A stretch of 11,891 bases of DNA from a virus. Below the pieces are notes generated by a model. That model was given only the letters and a program-made list of their open reading frames with translations. It was not told where the DNA came from and did no database searches. Where the stretch lies: UHGV virus genome UHGV-1567921. One strand, written 5' to 3'. Below, piece by piece: positions 11,526 through 11,891 of the stretch. Position 1 is the stretch's first letter, and each line of letters opens with the position of its first letter. Position numbers and translations under genes: made by a program.

Positions 11526-11817
11526 ATGGCCACAAAGACCACCACAGCCCCGGAAACTGATTCAAAACGCACTCAGCTATTCCTGCAATCTGTTTCAATT
11601 GGGCAGAACGAAATCCCTCGCGAAATGATCGTAGGATGTACCTATGTCGAACCCGGGGAGCTATCTGGTCCCCAGCTTATGCTCATGGTCAGGGATTCAA
11701 CGGCTTACGTGGTCAATAAGCTGGGGGTGAAATTTGGGACAATACTGACCGTTTCACTTGGTGATCCGGAAGGTCATGGCGGCATCCTCTTCTCGGAAGA
11801 GTTCTTTGTTCTTAAAG
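11526..11817 (+). CDS. Hypothetical protein, 3'-truncated at the end of authentic sequence
   Basis: ATG 11526 with GGAGGA 5 nt upstream. The reading frame runs into adapter at 11818, so the track's C-terminus ...EIGRAHV and its stop are adapter-derived. Confidence 0.7.
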
Positions 11818-11891
11818 AGATCGGAAGAGCACACGTCTGAACTCCAGTCACTGACCAATCTCGTATGCCGTCTTCTGCTTGAAAAAAAAAA
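11818..11891. other. Sequencing-adapter contamination: Illumina TruSeq indexed adapter (index TGACCA) plus poly-A
   Basis: AGATCGGAAGAGCACACGTCTGAACTCCAGTCAC (11818-11851), TGACCA (11852-11857), ATCTCGTATGCCGTCTTCTGCTTG (11858-11881), then A10. This is the exact TruSeq read-through structure. Confidence 0.95.

Follow-up and report, generated by a model that had tools for sequence, protein, structure and literature searches.

What lies at the 3' end of this contig, and does its last genuine base mark the physical terminus of a phage genome or simply the place where an assembly gave out? The window, by which we mean the whole stretch of 11,891 nucleotides that was analysed, is an authentic P1-like (Punavirus) phage-plasmid segment from position 1 to position 11817 (+ strand; matches to P1, Ro157c2YLVW and P7). 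Its last 74 bases are Illumina library adapter and a run of A, not biology. We consider it very probable that the contig ends at an ordinary low-coverage assembly break and not at a phage genome terminus.

The genuine part belongs to a well-characterized group of elements. Positions 1689-11817 of the window match phage P1 (NC_005856, 75054-85182, minus strand) at 99.2% identity over 10.1 kb; positions 72-11817 match Escherichia phage vB_EcoM-Ro157c2YLVW at 98.8% identity; and P7 matches from base 1 at 98.5% identity. The DNA is collinear with and near-identical to that of P1 and P7 across the morphogenesis and tail genes, which assigns the segment to Punavirus. The window begins with a PAPS-reductase/DUF4752 module; after it, by the P1 annotation, the gene order is pap, pmgS, pmgR, pmgQ, ppp, pmgP, pmgO, pmgN, pmgM and pmgL, followed by the divergent late promoters, genes 26, 25, 7 and 24, and then 292 nt of gene 6.

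The left end of the window (1-1690) is not P1 proper and holds a module in place of the P1 pmgT/U/V region. This module contains a PAPS-reductase-family ORF (773-1651, minus strand) together with ORFs that are annotated in related plasmids as DUF4752 and ead/Ea22-like. The same 1.7-kb module is common to P7, Ro157c2YLVW and 813R1, and it is ~90% identical to Stx-converting lambdoid phages and Shigella phage Ss-VASD. The matches of most relatives start at 69-72, and the 5' end of the contig therefore lies at a mosaic boundary. Further along, a 220-aa ORF (6617-7279, minus strand) that overlaps pmgP is the equivalent of P1 pmgO, named alpha-2,3-sialyltransferase in the P1 record. It has gone uncalled, being absent both from the ENA calls (gap L003 5194-5696) and from the GenBank record of Ro157c2YLVW.

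The adapter and its junction with genuine sequence

The 3' end of the window reads ...ttctcggaagagttctttgttcttaaag up to the junction and, beyond it, AGATCGGAAGAGCACACGTCTGAACTCCAGTCAC, TGACCA, ATCTCGTATGCCGTCTTCTGCTTG and AAAAAAAAAA. A string search of the window locates the 64-nt TruSeq indexed adapter at 11818-11881 on the + strand, as a single occurrence with 0 mismatches; the same 64-nt string was matched by 0 of 200 shuffles. The sequence-only reading, which had placed a full TruSeq adapter (index TGACCA) and a poly-A tail on this end, was right on both counts.

The adapter is made up, in order, of A, GATCGGAAGAGCACACGTCTGAACTCCAGTCAC, the index TGACCA and ATCTCGTATGCCGTCTTCTGCTTG, and each of its parts can be assigned to a position on the + strand. 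The first base past the junction, A at 11818, is non-genomic: it falls inside the exact 64-nt match, and P1 and Ro157c2YLVW both have C there. Going by TruSeq chemistry, it is the A-tailing base of the library fragment. The stem of the indexed adapter with the Read 2 primer site (GATCGGAAGAGCACACGTCTGAACTCCAGTCAC) follows at 11819-11851 as an exact match. The sample index TGACCA at 11852-11857, again an exact adapter match, is TruSeq AD004. The P7 flow-cell end of the adapter (ATCTCGTATGCCGTCTTCTGCTTG) occupies 11858-11881, likewise without mismatch. A terminal run of 10 A (A10, 11882-11891, + strand) closes the window. Since this run lies beyond the P7 end, the read appears to have run off the library molecule; in keeping with four-colour Illumina behaviour, the ten A would be bases called once the template was exhausted, and the contig would stop at the end of the furthest-reaching read.

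The features that identify an adapter artefact occur together at this end: an exact stem after the A-tailing base, a 6-nt index from the kit set followed by the P7 sequence ATCTCGTATGCCGTCTTCTGCTTG, forward orientation at the 3' end of a contig, and homology to real genomes that ends at the junction. The search for other adapter or Nextera fragments, which covered both ends and the interior of the window, returned just scattered 8-11-mers, as chance predicts, and the 5' end is clean.

The junction can be placed to the base. In a three-way alignment, P1, Ro157c2YLVW and the window agree through 11817 (G); at the next position both phages have C and the window has A, and similarity then collapses. 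Because the agreement ends there, the junction lies exactly between 11817 and 11818 and leaves no base in doubt. Codon 98 of gene 6 opens with base 11817, and the normal sequence of the gene past this point is ...CGCCGCGCAAGGACGAT.

The last 600 genuine bases (11218-11817) have a 100% identical counterpart in at least 8 complete plasmids, which shows that the genuine sequence can be relied on right up to the junction. The earlier warning that the terminal bases are suspect applies to the adapter tail from 11818 onwards and is unfounded for the bases up to 11817. At two third-codon positions of gene 6, 11738 (G/T/A) and 11750 (C/A/T), the window, P1 and Ro157c2YLVW all differ from one another. 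Both differences are synonymous (Gly and Thr, respectively), which marks them as natural polymorphism and not as end-of-contig error.

The 23-mer that spans the junction (GTTCTTAAAG plus AGATCGGAAGAGC) had 0 matches in the viral_contigs and genome_contigs collections and 1 match in metagenome_contigs, to OGGQ01037735.1. This match was considered as a second instance of the junction and rejected: upstream it agrees with the window in the 10-mer GTTCTTAAAG only, and it carries the universal adapter instead. OGGQ01037735.1 is an unrelated metagenome contig of 1234 nt that also ends in read-through (L005 1201-1234), in its case into the universal adapter AGATCGGAAGAGCGTCGTGTAGGGAAAGAGTGTA, and it illustrates how common adapter ends are in public metagenome assemblies.

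The truncated gene 6 and its chimeric product

Gene 6 of P1 encodes a product of 338 aa when complete, which acts in tail length determination and is named 'phage tail tape measure protein' by NCBI. The window carries the genuine 5' part of the homologue of this gene at 11526-11817 (+ strand), that is, 97 full codons and the first base of codon 98 (292 nt). The last ORF called in the window (11526-11840, + strand) is an artefact of 104 aa: gp6 residues 1-97 are followed by the adapter-derived residues EIGRAHV, and the ORF call and its translation place the false stop TGA at 11838-11840 (+ strand), within the adapter. The claim that the last gene is truncated, with an artefactual C-terminus and stop, is thus borne out.

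Over residues 1-97, the ORF differs from P1 gp6 at 1 position (I/V); past residue 97, P1 gp6 reads APRKDD... and continues to residue 338. The same 97 residues are identical to the N-termini of three gp6 proteins in the protein collection (P0009, P0013 and P0014), all of which go on ...FVLKAPRKDD. The rest of gene 6, codons 98-338 (...APRKDDTVLIYAF...), is absent from the contig. When gp6 residues 98-338 were compared with the protein collection, the matches fell into a single cluster of 1638 members and a few NCBI 'partial' clusters, and none of them was recognized as a fragment from ERZ773476.

An exact-sequence look-up finds the 104-aa chimera on public record as a gene called at 11526-11840 of ENA ERZ773476, NODE_1976_length_11891_cov_4.183934, a name in SPAdes format. 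The length given in this name and the matching coordinates establish that the window is the whole contig.

Broken versions of gp6 are also found elsewhere. The NCBI 'partial' gp6 clusters (P0010, P0013 and P0014) comprise an N-terminal form of 171 aa (226 members), an N-terminal form of 156 aa (39 members) and a C-terminal form of 149 aa (105 members). The large size of these clusters indicates that E. coli draft contigs break recurrently in gene 6, between codons 156 and 190, for which a repeat or a strain-variant branch is a possible cause. The partial proteins were considered as a sign of a breakage hotspot at 11817, an idea rejected on position, the breakpoints being at codons 156, 171 and 190 and not at 98. 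A different case is P0009 (332 aa), which is normal gp6 to about residue 247 and then turns to unrelated sequence (...VVYSGTQSAVKHRCYAEKK...); this switch suggests that gene 6 has been rearranged, or has taken up an insertion, in that genome.

The practical consequences are straightforward. The 74-nt tail is to be trimmed, which is a matter of data hygiene and not of biology. The 104-aa 'protein' consists of an N-terminal piece of P1 gp6 to which 7 false residues and a false stop are attached, and it needs to be flagged or removed; a public protein collection already contains it, and there it can give rise to spurious clusters or motifs. The contig end is unusable as a phage genome terminus in analyses of packaging or completeness.

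Origin of the contig end

Coverage is the first point to consider. The record name gives a k-mer coverage of 4.18 for the contig, which corresponds to a base coverage of ~5-9x on the assumption of the SPAdes default k (21, 33 and 55). With the replicon taken as ~95 kb, Lander-Waterman statistics at ~5-9x predict 6-15 random gaps and mean contigs of 6-15 kb, a range within which the 11.9-kb contig falls. At 4x k-mer coverage, a single adapter-bearing read suffices to extend a dead end.

We are highly confident of the overall mechanism, in which a short insert, untrimmed adapter read-through and thin coverage combined to leave an adapter tip in place as the contig end. It builds on direct observations: what the adapter is and exactly where it begins, which gene it cuts short, the recorded chimera, the low coverage and the continuity of the region in relatives. 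In its first step, a TruSeq library fragment would have had its right-hand end by chance at 11817, with an insert shorter than the read length. Read 1 would have run off this insert into the A-tail base, the indexed adapter, the P7 end and, last, cycles without template that were called as A; the A calls past P7 suggest a four-colour instrument. Because the adapter survived into the assembly, the reads were probably incompletely adapter-trimmed before they entered a SPAdes-type metagenome assembly. Past 11817, a genuine graph path may have been absent or too weak at low coverage, and the adapter tip would then have been retained; at the other end of the fragment, the adapter tip of the mate would be clipped, because a genuine path existed there. 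Lastly, as the record shows, the gene caller ran the truncated gene 6 into the adapter and so produced the 104-aa chimera with its false stop.

Of the 484 PLSDB plasmids that match a 601-nt probe with the junction at its centre, 480 span the probe. One of the plasmids that match the last 600 genuine nt at 100% identity, the circular 98-kb NZ_CP037905.1, has an intact gene 6 homologue of 1017 nt.

Could an insertion sequence, a deletion or a strain-heterogeneity branch nevertheless truly interrupt the P1-like element of this sample at 11817 or immediately beyond it, with the adapter tip as an incidental addition? We regard this as very improbable. Contig ends are commonly due to repeats or strain variants; E. 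coli drafts frequently carry a broken gene 6, as the partial gp6 clusters show (n = 226, 105 and 39); the gp6 variant P0009 turns to unrelated sequence past about residue 247; and the other end of the contig lies on a mosaic boundary, where most relatives' matches start (69-72). However, the recurrent gp6 breakpoints are at codons 156, 171 and 190, and none is at codon 98. Only 4 of the 484 plasmids do not span the probe, and the one of them that is listed, H55, matches probe positions 1-93, which stop short of the junction at 301. Assemblers, moreover, normally stop a contig where the graph branches and remove short, thinly covered tips instead of extending into one. Low coverage by itself explains the break.

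There is likewise very little probability that 11817 is a real and reproducible DNA end or fragile point of the P1-like element in this sample, whether because a defective element is truncated in gene 6 or because virion DNA tends to break or be nicked there, with the adapter capping a physical end. To the more specific version, in which 11817 is the physical end of packaged DNA (pac/headful) and the adapter was assembled because many fragments ended there, we assign an extremely low probability. A fixed DNA end does, in general, make many library fragments end at one base and so favours assembly of the adapter, an argument that holds for any such end and contains nothing specific to this contig. 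PhageTerm is said to exploit the fragment-end pile-up that arises at fixed DNA ends. Headful ends are imprecise and give no pile-up at one base.

The position of the break also argues against a packaging end. The contig end corresponds to P1 coordinate 75054 and falls well inside a conserved structural gene, gene 6, whose 338 codons are cut at codon 98. Cleavage at P1 pac takes place at the annotated sites 90804-90813 inside pacA, 15.7 kb away. The P1 pac site contains seven TGATCA/G hexamers within about 162 bp. Throughout the window, a search for such a cluster found at most 1 hexamer per 162 bp, and the last 300 nt hold a single one, at 11626. By an estimate from packaging direction and headful size, packaging from pac would need more rounds than the few P1 goes through before a headful got this far, and headful ends would not be expected at 11817.

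Other observations point in the same direction. As prophages, P1-like phages are circular plasmids, and the sequence runs on through the junction in 480 of 484 of them. The junction 23-mer does not recur in viral_contigs or genome_contigs, and its lone metagenome match is unrelated. One read is enough to account for the end at 4x k-mer coverage. The sequence-only reading had allowed for either a physical terminus or an assembly break; the location in mid-gene 6, the distance of 15.7 kb from pac, the 480 of 484 plasmids that span the site and the coverage of 4.18 all speak for the break and against the terminus.

One further feature near the junction deserves comment. The 9-mer TCGGAAGAG occurs in genuine sequence at 11793-11801 (+ strand), as gp6 codons S-E-E, and again inside the adapter at 11821-11829. 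The genuine copy, as had been noticed from the sequence, begins 25 nt ahead of the adapter; it is authentic and is conserved in identical form in P1 and Ro157c2YLVW. The accompanying suggestion that it had helped a chimeric or mis-trimmed read to extend the contig is not upheld, given that the junction is 16 nt downstream, that the adapter is complete and has its own copy, and that such matches are no more frequent than expected. Because 16 genuine nt separate the 9-mer from the junction, it is not the joining point. Adapter matches of at least 9 nt in the genuine 11.8 kb number 4 sites against 5.0 expected by chance, and are therefore ordinary. The chance of an adapter 9-mer within the last 30 nt is ~0.01, and the presence of TCGGAAGAG near the junction is most likely a coincidence, a mild one that we leave unexplained.

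A causal role of the genuine TCGGAAGAG in the artefact, whether by mispriming, by template switching onto the adapter or by an error of the software that trims adapters, has next to no probability: its proximity to the adapter (a start 25 nt before it, with the prior probability of ~0.01 just given) speaks for it, as might a furthest-reaching read that starts at 11791-11792, beside TCGGAAGAG, if reads are 100-101 nt long (a point given no weight), but a microhomology chimera would read ...TTCTCGGAAGAG joined directly to CACACG, where the contig instead has 16 genuine nt and then a complete adapter with its A-tail base; nine bases are fewer than the smallest k in common assemblers; sequence inspection finds TTC in the genome against AGA in the adapter 5' of the 9-mer, which leaves the 3' end of a library PCR primer mismatched; and the 9-mer was spotted only after the adapter had been seen. 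The preferred reading is that of a low-coverage break capped by an adapter tip.

Comparison with known systems

At the level of the protein, residues 1-97 of the last ORF are identical to a gp6 variant that is widespread on E. coli plasmids. The ORF differs from complete P1 gp6 in that adapter sequence supplies residues 98-104 (EIGRAHV) and the stop, and in lacking the other 241 residues.

At the level of the genome end, the contig shares with a P1 pac/headful terminus its P1-like origin, and a fixed DNA end could in principle give an adapter-capped end. It is unlike such a terminus in that the break falls in gene 6 and not in pacA, with neither a TGATCA/G cluster nor an annotated IHF site nearby.

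The closest counterparts are the TruSeq-contaminated contigs of public metagenome collections. In the MGnify genome catalogues, adapters are concentrated at contig ends and lie in forward orientation at 3' ends, adjoining CACACGTCTGAACTCCAGTCA (PMC11536531). Their removal improves the contiguity of MGnify genomes, which trimming and re-joining of adapter-bearing ends can raise (Moeller et al. 2024, BMC Genomics 25:1033, PMC11536531). As in these MGnify/ENA contigs, the end described here has forward AGATCGGAAGAG and then the read-1-specific CACACGTCTGAACTCCAGTCA at the extreme 3' end; it likewise comes from an ENA-hosted metagenome assembly, in which a broken contig carries a corrupted terminal gene (PMC11536531). 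There is no substantive difference between those cases and this one, in which the full adapter is present, including the index TGACCA, the P7 end and the A10. Rather than a biological feature, the adapter end is a technical artefact of a well-known kind, on a P1-like contig that is otherwise ordinary.
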